Below, piece after piece: positions 4,151-47,608 of a stretch of 64,000 nt of DNA (the first letter of the stretch is position 1; each line of letters starts with the position of its first letter). The DNA is from an uncultured virus (IMG/VR IMGVR_UViG_3300042544_003642). Its lineage: Duplodnaviria; Heunggongvirae; Uroviricota; Caudoviricetes. Location: IMG/VR virus record IMGVR_UViG_3300042544_003642. The stretch is one strand, 5' to 3'. The position numbers and the translations under genes were made by a program. The notes under the pieces were generated by a model. That model worked only from the letters and a program-made list of their open reading frames with translations. It was not told the DNA's origin and made no database searches.

Positions 4151-5221
4151 ATGAACAAAGCTGACCTAGGAATCTTTATCGGAAGGTTTTCTCCTTACCA
4201 TTCAGGTCACCACCATGTGGTAACTGAAGCACTCAAGCACGCAGACAATTTGGTGATTTTGGTGGGCAGTGCCCGCAGTCCGCGCAGTTATCGTGTGCCG
4301 TTTACCTTTCAAGAACGGCGGGACATGATTGAAGGCAGCCTGCCTGCCGAGCTGAAAAACAGAGTGCGAGTTCTGCCTCTAGAGGACGCCACCTACAACG
4401 ACAGCAAGTGGATCCACAATGTGCAGACGCTGGCTGCCCAAGGGGCGACGCTTTTTGGGCTTGACCCAGCCAAAGCCAAGATCACACTAGTGGGCCACAG
4501 CCGAGACAACACCAGCTATTACCTGAAACTGTTTCCTCAATGGAGCAATGTGGAGGTCAGCAGCTTCCGCGACATCAGCGGTACCAACATTCGCAACAGC
4601 TACTTCAGCAACATGGGCCACATGTGGGTGAGAGATGCAGATGGCCACCAAGCAGGTGACCTGCCTCAGGATGCAGTGGTGACACCCTATGTGCAGAAGT
4701 TTCTCAGCAGTTTCCTTGATACTCCCAACCACAAGCTGATCCGTGACGAGTATGAGTTTGTGCTGAAGTACAAAAGCAGTTGGGCGGCTGCGCCTTACCC
4801 TGTGAATCTAGTGTGCGTAGACGCTGTGGTGATCAAAAGCGGACATGTGCTAATGGTGGAACGTGGAGCAATGCCAGGGAAAGGCCAGCTTGCACTTCCT
4901 GGTGGATACCTAGATGTAACTGAGCGAGTAGTTGACGGGATGATCCGTGAGCTGCGTGAGGAAACTCGGTTGAAAGTCCCAGCTCCGGTGCTTAAAGGCA
5001 GCATTGTCAAGAAGGAAGTTTTTGACGATCCTAATCGCAGCAGCCGAGGTCGAGTGCTCACAGTAGCTTATCTCATTGATCTTGGCACAGGTCCACTTGA
5101 CACAGTCAAGGGCGGAGATGATGCGGCCTCAGCCAAATGGGTAGCCCTTAAAGATCTTCGGCCAGAAATCTGTTTTGAGGACCACTATCATTTAATCTCT
5201 GTACTAGTCGGGGCAATTTAG
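4151..5221 (+). CDS. nadM: bifunctional NMN adenylyltransferase / Nudix ADP-ribose pyrophosphatase (NadM-Nudix)
   Basis: GRFSPYHSGH, SGTNIR, Nudix box GG...RELREET. Confidence 0.92.
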   Translation: MNKADLGIFIGRFSPYHSGHHHVVTEALKHADNLVILVGSARSPRSYRVPFTFQERRDMIEGSLPAELKNRVRVLPLEDATYNDSKWIHNVQTLAAQGATLFGLDPAKAKITLVGHSRDNTSYYLKLFPQWSNVEVSSFRDISGTNIRNSYFSNMGHMWVRDADGHQAGDLPQDAVVTPYVQKFLSSFLDTPNHKLIRDEYEFVLKYKSSWAAAPYPVNLVCVDAVVIKSGHVLMVERGAMPGKGQLALPGGYLDVTERVVDGMIRELREETRLKVPAPVLKGSIVKKEVFDDPNRSSRGRVLTVAYLIDLGTGPLDTVKGGDDAASAKWVALKDLRPEICFEDHYHLISVLVGAI

Positions 5222-5533: not shown

Positions 5534-5854
5534 GTGAGTGACACTCCCCAGTTCACAGAAGTTGATCTCAGCAAAACCACACGGCATGGCAGTGATGAGC
5601 TAACAGTGGGACCAACCTATATCTGCTTGATTCACGGCAGCTATTTCATAGGCACATTCGGCAAGGTATGGTTTGGCTTGAACTTCAATGGTTGGCATGG
5701 CTGCGGCTTGCAATACGATCCACCGGGCACTAACTCTAGCCGTTGGCAGCGGGTGTGGCGGTTTGACAATGCAGAACTCATCAAACAAACTGAATCAGTT
5801 GTTGATGCATTGTTGAAAGGCACACCTAATGGGACACTACGACGAACAACGTGA
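5534..5854 (+). CDS. hypothetical protein
   Basis: ORF with SD in an operon-like arrangement. Confidence 0.5.
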   Translation: MSDTPQFTEVDLSKTTRHGSDELTVGPTYICLIHGSYFIGTFGKVWFGLNFNGWHGCGLQYDPPGTNSSRWQRVWRFDNAELIKQTESVVDALLKGTPNGTLRRTT

Positions 5855-6056
5855 TTTTGACGACTATCAGCAAAGTCTACGGCGAGATAAACAGTTGATT
5901 GAAGATGTGAAAAGTGGCAAATTTGGGGTGCTCTTGCATGCTGCTGACATTGCCAACAGCAATACAGTGATGGTGAACTGTGGCACATTTGCACGCATGA
6001 TCAGCATCATCTCACGACTTGACCCGAAAACCTACACATACCCCTGGGAACGATAA
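5829..6056 (+). CDS. hypothetical protein
   Basis: Overlapping operon ORF. Confidence 0.5.
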   Translation: MGHYDEQRDFDDYQQSLRRDKQLIEDVKSGKFGVLLHAADIANSNTVMVNCGTFARMISIISRLDPKTYTYPWER

Positions 6057-6066
6057 GGAAATTTCA

Positions 6067-6624
6067 ATGGTTATGACTGCACGAGCCTACCGGCATTTAC
6101 GCGATCTCATCTCGGAAAAAAGTTTGATTCAAGATCAAAACTTCACTCTCAGCAGTGGAGCAGCCAGCAACTACTTCTTCAACATGAAGATCTCCATGTT
6201 GGATCCCATGGGCAGCAATCTCATTGCTGATGCTATGCTGGATATTCTCGATACATTGGATTTTGACAGCGTAGGAGGGATGGCTGTGGGCAGCGTTCCG
6301 TTGGTTACCAGCATTGCCACCAAAAGCTACCTACGCAGTCGCCATTATCCAGCTTTCTTTGTGCGAAAAGAAGTGAAAGATCACGGCGTGCAAACAAAGA
6401 TTGATGGCCACTGCACTCCGGGTAGCCGAGTGGTGCTGGTGGAAGATGTGACTACTACTGGAGGCAGCATCATGCGGGCTGTTGAGGCTGTGCGGGAGAT
6501 TGGTTGCCAAGTGGACACAGTGCTCACAGTCGTTGACCGACTGGAAGGTGCGCGAGAGAATCTATCAGCAGAAAAGATTCGCTTGATCCCCCTCTACACA
6601 CGAGTTGATTTTGAGGATTCATAA
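6067..6624 (+). CDS. pyrE: orotate phosphoribosyltransferase
   Basis: FTLSSG, VRKEVKDHG, VEDVTTTGGS PRPP-binding motif. Confidence 0.92.
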   Translation: MVMTARAYRHLRDLISEKSLIQDQNFTLSSGAASNYFFNMKISMLDPMGSNLIADAMLDILDTLDFDSVGGMAVGSVPLVTSIATKSYLRSRHYPAFFVRKEVKDHGVQTKIDGHCTPGSRVVLVEDVTTTGGSIMRAVEAVREIGCQVDTVLTVVDRLEGARENLSAEKIRLIPLYTRVDFEDS

Positions 6625-6627
6625 ATT

Positions 6628-7359
6628 ATGATTATAATTCCTGACTCTCCCATTGCAGTTACACATCTAAAAAGGCCTATTATTCTCCCAGGAACTCCTT
6701 TACCAGATTATGTGGTGGAGAAAATACTCGCAAGTGAACAAGTTATTGACGATGATGACTCCTCCTTTGAAACAATGTTTTCTGGGGCAAAACCAATTGA
6801 TTCGTCCGGCTTTACTGGGGCAGTGACTCAGTGGGTTGAAGGAGAACTTGGAAGTTTAGGGTATCCTATAAATCACAGCAGAGGGATTGACGTACCGCCC
6901 TACAGTATCGAGATCAGAACTCGCAGAAAACACGCTACAGCTCCACAAACTTTTGGGTCTCTCAAACTATCAGATATAATTCAAAACTCATGGCTTACAT
7001 CTGATATCAAAACAAAGTGTCAACTCCACTATCAAGTGATGTGGGATGCGCAACACATGGTTGTTTGTGACGATCAAATCGTGGATTTCCGACATCCTTG
7101 GAGACAAGAGGCGTTACAAAAAGCTTTTGATAATGCTAGGGATGAGCTGATTGCATACTATTCTAGGCCCAATATTACAGTGCCTTTGAAATTCACTTCG
7201 ACTGCTGGCGGAATTTATCTTGAAAGAACTTCAAGGAAGAACAGCAAAAAAAGCTGGTTCTCAGCATTTTACCAGTTTCGAGTACGAAACAATTTGATGG
7301 AAAAATGGCATATAGCGGGCAGGAAAAACTCATACGATGAGCTGTTTTCAAAAATTTAA
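6628..7359 (+). CDS. possible PD-(D/E)xK nuclease-like protein
   Basis: VEGEL...GID...IEIRTR spacing resembles restriction-nuclease cores. Confidence 0.35.
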   Translation: MIIIPDSPIAVTHLKRPIILPGTPLPDYVVEKILASEQVIDDDDSSFETMFSGAKPIDSSGFTGAVTQWVEGELGSLGYPINHSRGIDVPPYSIEIRTRRKHATAPQTFGSLKLSDIIQNSWLTSDIKTKCQLHYQVMWDAQHMVVCDDQIVDFRHPWRQEALQKAFDNARDELIAYYSRPNITVPLKFTSTAGGIYLERTSRKNSKKSWFSAFYQFRVRNNLMEKWHIAGRKNSYDELFSKI

Positions 7360-14814: not shown

Positions 14815-18906
<4,092 letters not shown>

Positions 18907-20732: not shown

Positions 20733-20821
20733 TGGTGTCTCCAAAAGGGGTGCAAATTGTGCATTATTTATATATCTGGGCAATGATGCTATAATGTTTT
20801 GTTGAACAAGGAAAAATCTCC

Positions 20822-21550
20822 ATGCCCACACTAGGCATCACATGTGTTGACACTAAATTTTATTCAAAAACAAAGGTTGCACTAGAGCGAACCTTGGAAA
20901 CCTTAAATCATCTTGATATCAAAAAAATCTATTGGTTCAGTGATCAGCCATTGCAGATAGACACTAGTGTAACAATACAACATATACAAATTCCTCAGAT
21001 TGATAACACTCTTGAAGAGGTTTGTTTTCAGAAAGTCTACTCTGAAGTAATGTTGCGCCAGTGTCCAAAACTGGTGGAAGAAGATTTCAACCTCATAATT
21101 CACGCTGATGGCTATGCGGTGAACAAAGATGCCTGGACAGATGAGTTCTGGAACTATGATTACACTGGCGCGGTTTGGAAAAAATGGACCTGGTGGTGTG
21201 AAAATTTAGTAGGCAATGGCGGTTTTTGCCTTCGCAGTAAAAAATTGTTATCCGCTCTAGACGCTTTGAATTTACCTACAGATGTTGATGATTATCCTGG
21301 CACAGTATTGGAAAAAGACTGGCTGGCCTCACAAGGCTATGCCAAACAACTTCGTTATATTCCAGAAGACAACATCATCTGTAGATGGTATCGACAAAAA
21401 TTGGAAAAAGAGTTTGGTATAAAATTTGCACCCCTTGCGCTGGCTGATCAATTCAGTATCGAAAGAAACTTTGAAAGCCCTTGGCTGGGCAAAAGCTTGG
21501 GGTTTCATGGCAAACATGGGGTACATGAATTTTATGGGGTTGAAATCTAA
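20822..21550 (+). CDS. DUF5672-like glycosyltransferase-family protein
   Basis: HADG, YDYTGA, VGNGGFCLRSKKL, ED, FSIE, GFHG. Confidence 0.7.
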   Translation: MPTLGITCVDTKFYSKTKVALERTLETLNHLDIKKIYWFSDQPLQIDTSVTIQHIQIPQIDNTLEEVCFQKVYSEVMLRQCPKLVEEDFNLIIHADGYAVNKDAWTDEFWNYDYTGAVWKKWTWWCENLVGNGGFCLRSKKLLSALDALNLPTDVDDYPGTVLEKDWLASQGYAKQLRYIPEDNIICRWYRQKLEKEFGIKFAPLALADQFSIERNFESPWLGKSLGFHGKHGVHEFYGVEI

Positions 21551-21566
21551 AAATAATTTTTTTCCG

Positions 21567-21597
21567 TTGACATTTTTTGAACCTTCTCCTATAAATA
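21567..21597 (+). promoter_or_regulatory. sigma70 promoter overlapping a T4-like late motif
   Basis: TTGACA-17 nt-TATAAA(TA). Confidence 0.75.
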
Positions 21598-21655
21598 ACT
21601 TAAGGTAGCAAACAACAGTATGTTGCCCAAACACAAAAGGACTGGAACTATAAAA

Positions 21656-21772
21656 ATGTTTTCAAAACTGATGCATAATATTTGGGAAAGGGATTGCTCA
21701 TTTAGCAATGAGTATCAGCCCGCCGGTATTGTGCGCAAGCCAGTCCCAGCACCTGGAGGTGAAAAGATCTAG
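21656..21772 (+). CDS. putative attenuator leader peptide (38 aa; 50 aa from in-frame ATG 21620); not in ORF track
   Basis: MFSKLMHNIWERDCSFSNEYQPAGIVRKPVPAPGGEKI*; 3' end overlaps the antiterminator arm. Confidence 0.7.
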   Translation: MFSKLMHNIWERDCSFSNEYQPAGIVRKPVPAPGGEKI

Positions 21773-21833
21773 ATCAACTTTGATATAGACTTTTCAGGAC
21801 CCTCCAGAGATCACAAGTCTCGGAGGGTTTTTT
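21753..21833 (+). terminator. attenuator: antiterminator (21753-21807) and rho-independent terminator (21799-21833)
   Basis: Terminator accctcc(a)gagat/gtctcggagggt + T-run; CTGGAGG-TGAAAAG pairs with CTTTTCA-CCTCCAG. Confidence 0.8.
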
Positions 21834-21895
21834 GTTGGTTGGACATTTATGCAAGGAGAGAGGAAAACGAGAAACAAATATGAAAGCACAAACAG

Positions 21896-22019
21896 ATAAT
21901 CGTAGATGAAACAATTGAGCTAAACGCTCCCAAAGGTCAACTGGGTGAAAGTCCCCGGTCTAGAGCTGATAATGGTAGACAAATCCATGCAGCCAGTAAT
22001 ATTATTCATCTACGATTGT
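21896..22019 (+). ncRNA. putative structured RNA closed by a 15-bp helix
   Basis: ataatcgtagatgaa/ttcatctacgattgt; internal hairpins incl. GGG-TGAAAGT-CCC. Confidence 0.45.
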
Positions 22020-22042
22020 TTTAAGACAAAAGGATAGAATTT

Positions 22043-22117
22043 GGTCAGTTGGCAGAGCGATTATGCAACGGACTGCAAATCCGTTACACGGGGGTTTAAA
22101 TCCCTCACTGACCTCCA
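22043..22117 (+). tRNA. tRNA-Cys(GCA)
   Basis: acgga-ctGCAaa-tccgt; CCA end. Confidence 0.9.
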
Positions 22118-22126
22118 AATATTTGT

Positions 22127-22199
22127 GGCGCCATAGTTTAGTGGTCGAGAACACTCCGTTTTCACCGGAGAGACGGGATTTCAATTATCCCTGGCGCTA
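22127..22199 (+). tRNA. tRNA-Glu(TTC)
   Basis: ctccg-ttTTCac-cggag. Confidence 0.75.
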
Positions 22200-22246
22200 T
22201 TCACCTATATTGACACCAAGATACATATCCTGTAGATACAACTGAT

Positions 22247-22336
22247 GGAGCTGTGGCCGAGAGGCTTAAGGCGACGGTTTGCTAAACCGTTGTACATTGT
22301 AAAGGTGTACCGAGGGTTCGAATCCCTCCGGCTCCG
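22247..22336 (+). tRNA. tRNA-Ser(GCT)
   Basis: acggt-ttGCTaa-accgt; long variable arm. Confidence 0.92.
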
Positions 22337-22354
22337 GAAATTTTTGAGAATCAA

Positions 22355-23164
22355 ATGAACAAAGTATATGATTGTTTCAGTTTCAACGGAGAATGGGATT
22401 TACTGGAGTTAAGGCTCAATACTCTTGATCCTGTGGTTGATTATTTCGTAATTGCTGAAAGCAATCACACACATATGGGCATACCCAAAAAATTACAGTT
22501 CAATATTCGTGACAGCAGATTAAGTAAATTCACACGCAAGATACGTTATATCCTGGTTTCAGATATGCCCAATCAAGATGCGTGGGGCAATGATAGATTT
22601 CAGCGGAATGCCGCTATGAGAGGCTTGTGGGACGCACAGCCACAAGATTTGGTCATTATAAGCGACTGTGACGAACTACCAAGGCGAGAGGCAGTAGGGG
22701 TTGCTAGAGATCACAGCTATAACTTGTTTGGTTTTGAACTAGCTTGGTATTACTGTTACATTAACAATGTGAATGTTCACGGGCATCCTCCAGAAATAGC
22801 ATCGGTTGGGGTTCGTTTCCAAGAACTCAAAAACCATACGCCAGATGATTACCGATGGGGTATCCGCGGAGCCAAGTATCAGGGCATTTGGATTTTCACC
22901 AACAGTGGTTGGCATTTCAGTTATCTTATGGACAAAGAAAAAATAATTGAGAAAGTGCAGAATTTTACTCATCAAGAGTTCAACAACCCAAAAGTTTTGA
23001 GCACAATTGATCCAGTTGAAGCTGCATTGGCAGGACGCGACCTTTTGGGCAGAGACTGGATGAGTTGGAAATTGATGGAAAAAAATCAATTGGACCTACC
23101 AGCATATATTTGGAAAAATTGGACCAAATTTGAAAAACACTTTTTGTCACCAGGATTAGAATGA
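22355..23164 (+). CDS. glycosyltransferase family 17 (MGAT3-like)
   Basis: YDCFSFNGEWDLLELRL, SDCDE, GWHFSY. Confidence 0.85.
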   Translation: MNKVYDCFSFNGEWDLLELRLNTLDPVVDYFVIAESNHTHMGIPKKLQFNIRDSRLSKFTRKIRYILVSDMPNQDAWGNDRFQRNAAMRGLWDAQPQDLVIISDCDELPRREAVGVARDHSYNLFGFELAWYYCYINNVNVHGHPPEIASVGVRFQELKNHTPDDYRWGIRGAKYQGIWIFTNSGWHFSYLMDKEKIIEKVQNFTHQEFNNPKVLSTIDPVEAALAGRDLLGRDWMSWKLMEKNQLDLPAYIWKNWTKFEKHFLSPGLE

Positions 23165-23967
23165 AAAAGAAAGTTTATGACTGTTTTTGTTTCAATGGTG
23201 AATGGAGCATACTCGAGCTACGTTTGAACACACACACCCCTGTTGTGGACTATTTTGTGATTGTTGAAAGCATTTTCACACATGTGGGTCGCCCCAAGGA
23301 ATTGAAATTTGATATCTCTGACCCAAGAGTTGCAGATTTTGCCCACAAAATACGATATATTTTAGTAACGGATTTTCCCAATGAAAGCGTTTGGGGTAAC
23401 GAAGTCTTTCAAAGAGATGCCATTACCCGAGGATTGTGGGATGCAGAGCCCAACAGCTTGATCTTGATATCAGATTGTGATGAAATCATTAGACCTGACT
23501 GTATACAAGCCTGTCTTGAAAACCAAGAATACAAGCTTTTTGGATTTCAACAGTTGAGTTATTTCACGTTTTTAAATAACAAAAATGAAGCAGGCAGTGG
23601 TCCTCAAGTTTGGAGTGTGGGGGTATATTTTGAAGAACTCAAAAATGCCACTCCTACAGAATATCGAATGGGCATTAGAGATGGACATTTCTCTCACATG
23701 TGGTGGTGGCACGATGCTGGATGGCATCTCAGCTATATGATGACAAAGGAACAAATAATTGAAAAAGTCCAGAACTTTGCTCATCAAGAGTTCAACACTC
23801 CTGGCGTTTTGAGCAAGATTGATCCCATCAAACGAGCTAGGGCTGGGGAAGATATTTTGGGTAGAGAACATTGTCGATGGCAGCTTTTGCCTTTTGACTC
23901 TGTGGATTTACCCGCTTACGTGAGGCAAAATCCAGATAAGTATCAAAAATACTTTTTAGAGCCTTAA
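23161..23967 (+). CDS. glycosyltransferase family 17, tandem paralog
   Basis: YDCFCFNGE, SDCDE, GWHLSY. Confidence 0.85.
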   Translation: MKKKVYDCFCFNGEWSILELRLNTHTPVVDYFVIVESIFTHVGRPKELKFDISDPRVADFAHKIRYILVTDFPNESVWGNEVFQRDAITRGLWDAEPNSLILISDCDEIIRPDCIQACLENQEYKLFGFQQLSYFTFLNNKNEAGSGPQVWSVGVYFEELKNATPTEYRMGIRDGHFSHMWWWHDAGWHLSYMMTKEQIIEKVQNFAHQEFNTPGVLSKIDPIKRARAGEDILGREHCRWQLLPFDSVDLPAYVRQNPDKYQKYFLEP

Positions 23968-25366: not shown

Positions 25367-25475
25367 TTGCCATCGAGGTTGGAACAGCCTCCCAACACAC
25401 CATGAGAATGGTAACTAGCCGGCAGCAATCACCTAGCTGGTGAAGAAATCCGGAAGTGGCATCCGGCGATGGCGA
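25367..25475 (+). ncRNA. tRNA-like RNA lacking a 7-nt anticodon loop
   Basis: gccatcg/cgatggc acceptor, ccgga-7-tccgg T-arm, accat-GAGA-atggt. Confidence 0.45.
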
Positions 25476-25494: not shown

Positions 25495-25557
25495 GGGCCT
25501 GTAGCTCAACTGAATAGAGCGTGAGACTTTGGATCTCAAGGTTGAGATGGTTTACTC
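25495..25557 (+). pseudogene. truncated tRNA (Arg-like body, TTG anticodon)
   Basis: D-arm identical to tRNA-Arg at 31741; no intact T-arm or 3' acceptor strand. Confidence 0.5.
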
Positions 25558-25670
25558 CTGTCATACCTGGGGAAATTGTACGCAGATCCTACGGATCAAT
25601 GTCAGGTTGACTCCACACCCTCTTAAAGCCATGTAAATAAATGCAGACAATAAGACAGGAGCAGGGTTAT

Positions 25671-47534: not shown

Positions 47535-47608
47535 GGCCCCATAAGACAAAGGTAGTCAGCTGGACTCTAAATCCAGTGGTGTGAGTTCAAATCTCACTGG
47601 TGCCACCA
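47535..47608 (+). tRNA. amber suppressor tRNA (CTA anticodon)
   Basis: gctgga-ctCTAaa-tccagt; TTCAAAT T-loop; CCA; own promoter upstream. Confidence 0.85.

Follow-up and report, generated by a model that had tools for sequence, protein, structure and literature searches.

The DNA analysed here (the window, 64,000 nucleotides, presented as one strand) belongs to an IMG/VR virus record of 119,063 bases, for which a completeness of 34% was estimated. A near-identical record of 309,756 bases is rated 76% complete, and the virus is therefore a jumbo phage; the sequencing runs that contain it are lake-water metagenomes. Using ARAGORN, 18 tRNA genes were found, all on the + strand from 22043 to 47608, spread over 25 kb and interspersed with protein genes including two GT17 glycosyltransferase paralogues. 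No tRNA gene was detected upstream of 22043, so the tRNA region opens with the leader unit described below. A gene for a DUF5672 protein lies immediately 5' of the leader promoter, and the first tRNA genes 3' of the leader are tRNA-Cys(GCA), starting at 22043, tRNA-Glu(UUC) and tRNA-Ser(GCU) (together 22043-22337, + strand). The two GT17-family paralogues are arranged in tandem immediately after tRNA-Ser (22355-23967).

The leader unit begins with a sigma-70-like promoter on the + strand (21567-21595), consisting of TTGACA (21567-21572), a 17-nt spacer and TATAAA (21590-21595), with 11 of 12 positions matching in consensus scoring. The standard consensus scan did not list this promoter because its -10 hexamer is without T at position 6. 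In three related loci (L013-15, see below) both hexamers are identical and the spacer carries two changes. At the predicted transcript start, the alignment fold gives a 5'-terminal stem-loop (21604-21628, + strand), in which, by comparison with relatives, both bases of one pair are changed (G-C to A-U) and one base of another (U-G to C-G). The ATG at 21620, which had been put forward in the first-pass annotation as an alternative start supplying a missing Thr, sits inside this hairpin in the window and is not conserved; relatives have GAG, followed by a 1-nt indel, and the proposal was dropped. The heptamer GGACUGG (21639-21645, + strand) is conserved within the otherwise diverged 5'UTR, and its partner in the predicted folds is CCAGUCC (21740-21746), all pairs being invariant in relatives.

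Between the promoter and an intrinsic terminator (21800-21833) lies an ORF of 38 codons (21656-21772, + strand), which ends with TAG in the window and with TAA in relatives. Its AU-rich start region is unpaired in the predicted fold, and a long interrupted hairpin of 23 pairs is predicted within it (21673-21734, + strand; z = -2.6 for 21636-21752). A Shine-Dalgarno (SD) sequence at the usual spacing is absent, the sole SD-like motif being AGGA, 15 nt 5' of the ATG; in the record, 33 of 91 long ORFs have an SD core, with a spacing peak at 8 nt. Codon usage of the ORF is neutral (25.7% of spurious short ORFs equal or exceed its score, and 7.5% of real in-frame windows are at or below it), and codon-usage scoring failed to separate coding from non-coding sequence. 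The peptide occurs once in the near-identical record of 309,756 nt. Searches of Pfam, PHROGs and NCBIfam gave no family for it, and its best score in the protein atlas (0.76) is at the noise level. AlphaFold predictions on six peptide sequences were uninformative (pLDDT 63, pTM 0.24).

The first 26 codons of the ORF encode 19 different amino acids, Thr being absent, as had been annotated. Such windows (19 kinds in 26 codons, a window length chosen post hoc) account for 4 of the 41,037 windows in the record's 197 ORFs with 100 aa or more. Of the 89,117 windows without a stop in the six frames of the 119-kb record, 13 are of this kind, falling at seven places, with five windows in the leader ORF. 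Among short ATG ORFs, 1 of 363 reaches 19 kinds. The diversity is rare for the 26-codon window, whereas over all 38 residues 19 kinds lie only in the top 2.1% of long-ORF windows and are matched by 6 of 77 random ORFs of 36-40 aa. Over the first 26 codons, the count of different amino acids is 19 in the window, 18, 18, 17 and 18 in four close variants (P0001-P0004) and 16 in a distant one (P0005); homologues thus retain the ORF itself but not an all-amino-acid composition.

The codons of the leader ORF that are readable by the window's tRNAs number 23 of 38, against a background of 48.6% (p=0.095), and under strict wobble GGT and CTG are unreadable by the phage tRNA-Gly(UCC) and tRNA-Leu species, respectively. 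The suggestion that synonymous codons vary in step with the downstream tRNAs was accordingly not borne out. No runs of regulatory codons occur in the leader ORF, each amino acid being represented by one to three codons, for which a low sensitivity to the shortage of a single amino acid is expected according to PMC1183508.

The terminator (21800-21833, + strand) consists of CCCTCC-A-GAGA, a 7-nt loop and TCTC-GGAGGG (21800-21827), followed by T6 (21828-21833), and forms 10 bp (6 + 4) with a bulged A and a stability of -15.8 kcal/mol alone. It starts 27 nt after the stop codon and is identical in sequence in L013-15; the standard consensus scan did not list it because of the bulged A. The promoter, the ORF, the terminator and the tRNA genes about 200 nt further on are thus all present as first described.

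Two upstream segments compete with this terminator or adjoin it. The segment CUGGAGG (21753-21759, + strand) is the 5' strand of a competing (antiterminator) helix whose partner is CCTCCAG (21801-21807), and TGAAAAG (21760-21766) pairs with CTTTTCA (21790-21796) to give a hairpin across the stop codon (hairpin A, 21760-21796, + strand). Both had been listed among the competing pairings and are retained here; the additional pairing ATCAA:TTGAT was reduced to 4 bp with a 4-nt loop, 5 bp being impossible because a 2-nt loop would remain.

Co-transcriptional folding was calculated for successive polymerase positions. With the polymerase at 21808-21818, the minimum-energy fold contains the helix 21753-21807, by which the 5' arm of the terminator is sequestered; once the 3' arm of the terminator is out, hairpin A together with the terminator is favoured. 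The masked state has -24.4 kcal/mol, compared with -27.5 kcal/mol for hairpin A plus terminator, and the barrier between them was estimated by findpath at about 9.6 kcal/mol, from which we infer a refolding slow enough to bear on whether termination occurs. Upstream pairing of the 5' arm gains -10.8 kcal/mol, compared with -1.9 +/- 2.0 kcal/mol in dinucleotide shuffles, in which 4 of 1000 reach this value; when only 21700-21759 was shuffled, 1 of 1000 did so. Among the 25 definable terminator-like hairpins of the record this masking gain ranks first, the next being -7.7 kcal/mol, and the sequestration of the 5' arm, as annotated, is thereby upheld. The whole unit also folds far better than its shuffles (z = -4.4, 0 of 200). 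The last seven codons of the ORF and its stop form the 5' half of the helix 21753-21807, and because the stop codon is in the 5' strand of the masking helix, a ribosome at the stop would open it. Terminator and antiterminator are thus mutually exclusive helices that share a strand, with pairs that are invariant in the available relatives and hence without covariation. This competition is the strongest result of the analysis and is beyond chance.

Relatives of the unit were obtained by a protein search, which gave a cluster of four 38-aa variants (P0001-P0004, 84-92% identity), and by a metagenome scan, which gave three loci (L013-15) carrying one variant of that cluster. In their flanks, L013-15 share 77.4% identity with the window across 5,536 nt on the upstream side and 75.8% across 1,910 nt on the downstream side. 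Along the unit, identity is about 92% in the promoter, 74% in the 5'UTR and 96-100% from about 21670 (codon 6) to 22042, and no comparable run of bins occurs in the approximately 6.5 kb of alignable flank. In ORF codons 6-38, none of the 33 codons differs synonymously from L013, compared with 66 of the 208 codons for an unchanged amino acid in the flanking DUF5672 gene (P=3.4e-6, the synonymous rate being drawn from that gene only). Codons 2, 3 and 5 differ in L013-15, all with a change of amino acid, and the change of the stop from TAG to TAA leaves it a stop. Four changes fall in 21753-21833 (21772, 21777, 21778 and 21797), all outside the pairs of hairpin A and the masking helix: the first three positions are unpaired, 21777-21778 being in the loop of hairpin A, and 21797 is in the linker, where G-U becomes A-U in the consensus fold. 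The spacer between terminator and tRNA-Cys (21834-22042) is identical to L013 at 202 of 209 positions. Conservation down to the nucleotide, without synonymous change, points to the RNA sequence and structure, and not only the peptide, as the probable object of selection; the conserved block could alternatively be a recent recombination tract.

A profile search against 1.84 billion representatives gave the distant homologue cluster P0005 (E=1.5e-6), whose 38 C-terminal residues gave a gap-free alignment of 55% identity in which the start Met and the stop coincide and 20 positions are invariant, the last five residues among them; as it was found via a called ORF, it is a biased sample with respect to the kept frame. 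Its substitutions are often radical, and Asp, Gly and Leu occur at codons 31-35 only. Projected from the protein sequence onto the fold of the window, F16I together with N18I could represent a compensatory change of U-A to A-U, and, on the assumption of minimal nucleotide changes, D13N and C14R would disrupt pairing. Under the same assumption and likewise from protein sequence, the substitutions C14Y, S17C, Q21M and A23V in P0001-P0004 would be compatible with the structure (G-U to A-U, loop, internal loop, and G-C to G-U, respectively).

No DNA match for P0005, P0001, P0003 or P0004 was found in the viral scan. When the sequence 20800-22400 was compared with 50,697 GenBank phages, 48 records matched, in tRNA-Ser-like stretches only and none over more than 6% of the query. 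Three IMG/VR contigs that match 6,000 nt with 100% identity are uninformative. The remaining candidates were set aside, namely L008-L012 (matches of 11 residues), L016-L017 (short or 39%-identical matches), L021-23 (without a start and with different ends), L024 (a chance 18-mer match in high-GC DNA), L028 (a frame antisense to a gene for 321 aa in a MAG) and P0006-P0008 (repeat proteins with only 12-18 residues matching).

Downstream of the terminator, a conserved structured domain of 133 nt (21892-22024, + strand) was predicted by folding, with a 17-bp closing stem and three hairpins. Its minimum free energy is -40.5 kcal/mol, compared with -23.5 +/- 3.4 kcal/mol in shuffles (z = -5.0, 0 of 200). 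The domain is about 97% conserved versus about 77% in the flanks, and its changes are unpaired or convert A-U to G-U. It ends about 20 nt before tRNA-Cys, is without an Rfam match, and may be a stable RNA that is processed together with the tRNAs. Comparison of 4227 Rfam models with 21560-22050 gave nothing near a gathering threshold, the best score being 22.2 bits against 64.5.

A promoter-like site (21976-22005, + strand; TAGACA, 18 nt, TATTAT) was found by consensus scans 38 nt 5' of tRNA-Cys, and its hexamers are identical in L013. Sigma-70-like sites end 5-70 nt upstream of 7 of the 11 tRNA clusters (those at 22043, 24934, 26880, 39148, 40251, 45719 and 47535), which none of 20,000 random placements matched; the observed distances are 11-63 nt. 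From these sites the tRNA clusters look like separate transcription units of the host RNA polymerase. Given this arrangement and the dispersal of the tRNA genes over 25 kb, the claim that the leader gates the whole tRNA array is not supported.

In four freshwater metatranscriptome runs, contigs of the L013-type haplotype extend from 21652 or 21674 to 22140, and a 440-nt RNA-library contig crosses the terminator (21674-22057). The summed contig depth before and after the terminator is 23.2/37.6, 13.3/8.2 and 4.3/3.4, which is a poor measure and could include DNA carry-over. The region 21300-21650 is without a contig in the four RNA runs, a gap that carries no evidential weight. Contig ends at 21674, 21833 and 21840 were rejected as RNA ends, as they coincide with k-1 overlaps at variant sites.

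Like the leader-peptide attenuators trpL, hisL, thrL and ilvL, the unit has a short ORF in a promoter-proximal leader, and as in amino-acid-operon attenuators the stop codon adjoins or falls within alternative helices, sequestration of the terminator 5' arm is possible and the position of the leading ribosome would set the outcome. Unlike those attenuators, it is without runs of cognate regulatory codons and has three competing segments only (mask, shared arm and 3' arm). No clear 1:2 anti-antiterminator is present, and without translation the leader is therefore expected to give read-through, not super-attenuation. It is, moreover, phage-borne and followed by a structured RNA and tRNA genes, not by genes for biosynthetic enzymes. 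In the tRNA region of T4, the species 1 and 2 RNAs are structured non-tRNA RNAs co-transcribed with tRNAs, a setting similar to that of the leader; an ORF or conditional terminator is not known from them. Phage tRNA genes are now regarded as counter-measures to host tRNA-cleaving defences, and little is known of how their expression is controlled. Among the matches listed in full-text literature searches, no paper on control of phage tRNA genes by a leader ORF and conditional terminator appeared. The PyrR-binding attenuator (RF00515) shares the common layout of hairpin and terminator; a match below the gathering threshold in L013 only (5093-5181, 31.5 bits, E=0.075, gathering 54), absent from the window at E<=10, was judged to be due to chance. 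As with attenuator-derived or dual-function small RNAs such as rnTrpL of Sinorhizobium (PMC6614838), the terminated leader would be a discrete structured RNA with a small ORF and could have a role of its own; a difference is that the leader RNA here has no known trans target or activity.

We read the locus as a self-contained leader-type RNA unit, whose architecture is real and conserved and which looks like a conditional terminator tied to the mini-ORF. The reading that we tentatively prefer, with somewhat less than even confidence, is a translation-dependent terminator that feeds read-through into the structured RNA 21892-22024 and tRNA-Cys/Glu/Ser. A host-type promoter would give a transcript with a 5' stem-loop followed by the ORF within strongly folded RNA, and the masking helix would form first during transcription. 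A ribosome that reached the stop close behind the polymerase would unwind the mask and allow the terminator to form. If the leading ribosome lagged for any cause, or never started, the mask would last through the decision window, and transcription would proceed into the conserved structured RNA and tRNA-Cys/Glu/Ser. The leader would thus report on the pace of translation in general instead of counting twenty amino acids, and would supplement at most the first tRNA cluster and not the array as a whole. The further proposal of a phage-encoded sensor of translation capacity, in which lag of the leading ribosome through tRNA cleavage by host defence, starvation or ribosome attack leads to transcription into the structured RNA and tRNA genes, is more doubtful. 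A conditional terminator coupled to a leader ORF ahead of tRNA genes would extend ribosome-mediated attenuation from amino-acid operons to the decoding machinery itself, with direct feedback from translation pace to the phage tRNA supply. Should the regulatory reading fail, the locus of this uncultured lake jumbo phage would still provide two structured RNAs that are strongly conserved and have no Rfam family.

The translation-dependent terminator was weighed against an autonomous sRNA gene, trans-acting or dual-function, with a stable RNA of about 230 nt, in which the ORF would have an incidental or secondary role and the competing helix would belong to the mature fold or arise as an intermediate of folding. 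The masking gain (-10.8 kcal/mol, 4 of 1000 shuffles, rank 1 of 25) argues for the former, and an sRNA gene leaves unexplained why the 5' arm is masked more strongly here than in the other 24 terminator-like hairpins. The same applies to the ORF, whose start, length and stop are preserved in P0005 at 55% identity; its lack of an SD at the usual spacing and its neutral codon usage, on the other hand, are points against dependence on translation and suit an sRNA gene. The identity of 96-100% over 21670-22042 and the 0 of 33 synonymous changes are consistent with both, being conservation at the nucleotide and not the protein level, and would lose their weight if the block were a recombination tract. 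An sRNA gene would further agree with the strong and conserved structure, the dedicated promoter and intrinsic terminator, the one compensatory pair in the 5' hairpin, the structure-compatible C14Y, S17C, Q21M and A23V (minimal nucleotide changes being assumed), and the other RNA genes nearby (the domain 21892-22024 and a skipping-rope RNA); it finds no family match in Rfam at E<=10, and we consider it rather unlikely. Returning to the translation-dependent terminator, the RNA-library contigs that bridge the terminator are in its favour, and it is weakened by the terminator state being the more stable of the two, by the absence of regulatory-codon runs, by the invariance of the masking pairs, which deprives them of covariation support, and by the conserved promoter-like site that tRNA-Cys has of its own, as have 7 of 11 clusters.

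An ordinary gene for a 38-aa small protein with its own promoter and terminator, the hairpins merely stabilising the 3' end of the mRNA, would account for the retention of the ORF in five other variants, one of which has the same ends and 20 invariant positions at an identity of 55%, and for the replacement of TAG by another stop, TAA. An unpaired start region and the ordinary distance of 27 nt from stop to terminator also fit such a gene. It is nevertheless unlikely in view of the 0 of 33 synonymous changes where about 10 would be expected, the many radical substitutions in P0005, the lack of a Pfam, PHROGs or NCBIfam family with atlas hits of at most 0.76, and the extension of conservation for 209 nt past the gene. 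The idea of the first-pass annotation, a universal sensor of trp/his type with codons matched to the phage tRNAs and switching the whole array, is a sub-case of the translation-dependent terminator and shares with it a terminator/antiterminator alternative that is real; the rarity of 19 amino acids in 26 codons (4 of 41,037 windows, 1 of 363 short ORFs) and the above-average diversity of the family (16-19) also speak for it. It is very improbable all the same, as none of the relatives supplies Thr and four of them lack Leu, and as Asp, Gly and Leu of P0005 are confined to codons 31-35, at which a stalled ribosome would lie over the masking strand. The codon-tRNA match (p=0.095) and the promoter-like sites of the tRNA clusters themselves likewise stand against it, as does the low sensitivity to single shortages that one to three codons per amino acid would confer (PMC1183508).

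Several further features of the region were recorded. The skipping-rope RNA (RF02924) was matched by Rfam at 25368-25474, just past two tRNA-Lys genes (44.5 bits against a gathering threshold of 36.7), and is adjoined by a tRNA-like match at 25495-25569 that is slightly below its threshold (27.6 against 29). The tRNA at 47535-47608 has the anticodon CUA, is labelled Pyl by ARAGORN and is an amber suppressor. Recoding of TAG, considered on account of this tRNA, was rejected, as TAG is the end of 36 of 120 long frames and the coverage gained by reading through TAG is no greater than that by reading through TAA or TGA. In L013, tRNA-Cys and tRNA-Glu were missed by ARAGORN and found by Rfam at 34-40 bits, and tRNA-Glu and tRNA-Ser are separated by a 1.27-kb insertion (5545-6850) with two minus-strand ORFs (231 and 166 aa), which is absent in the window and may have entered the tRNA cluster as a mobile insertion. 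Within the window, 16300-18900 is a highly repetitive coding region (GC 0.52, GC skew -0.29) with many internal BLAST self-matches to L013.
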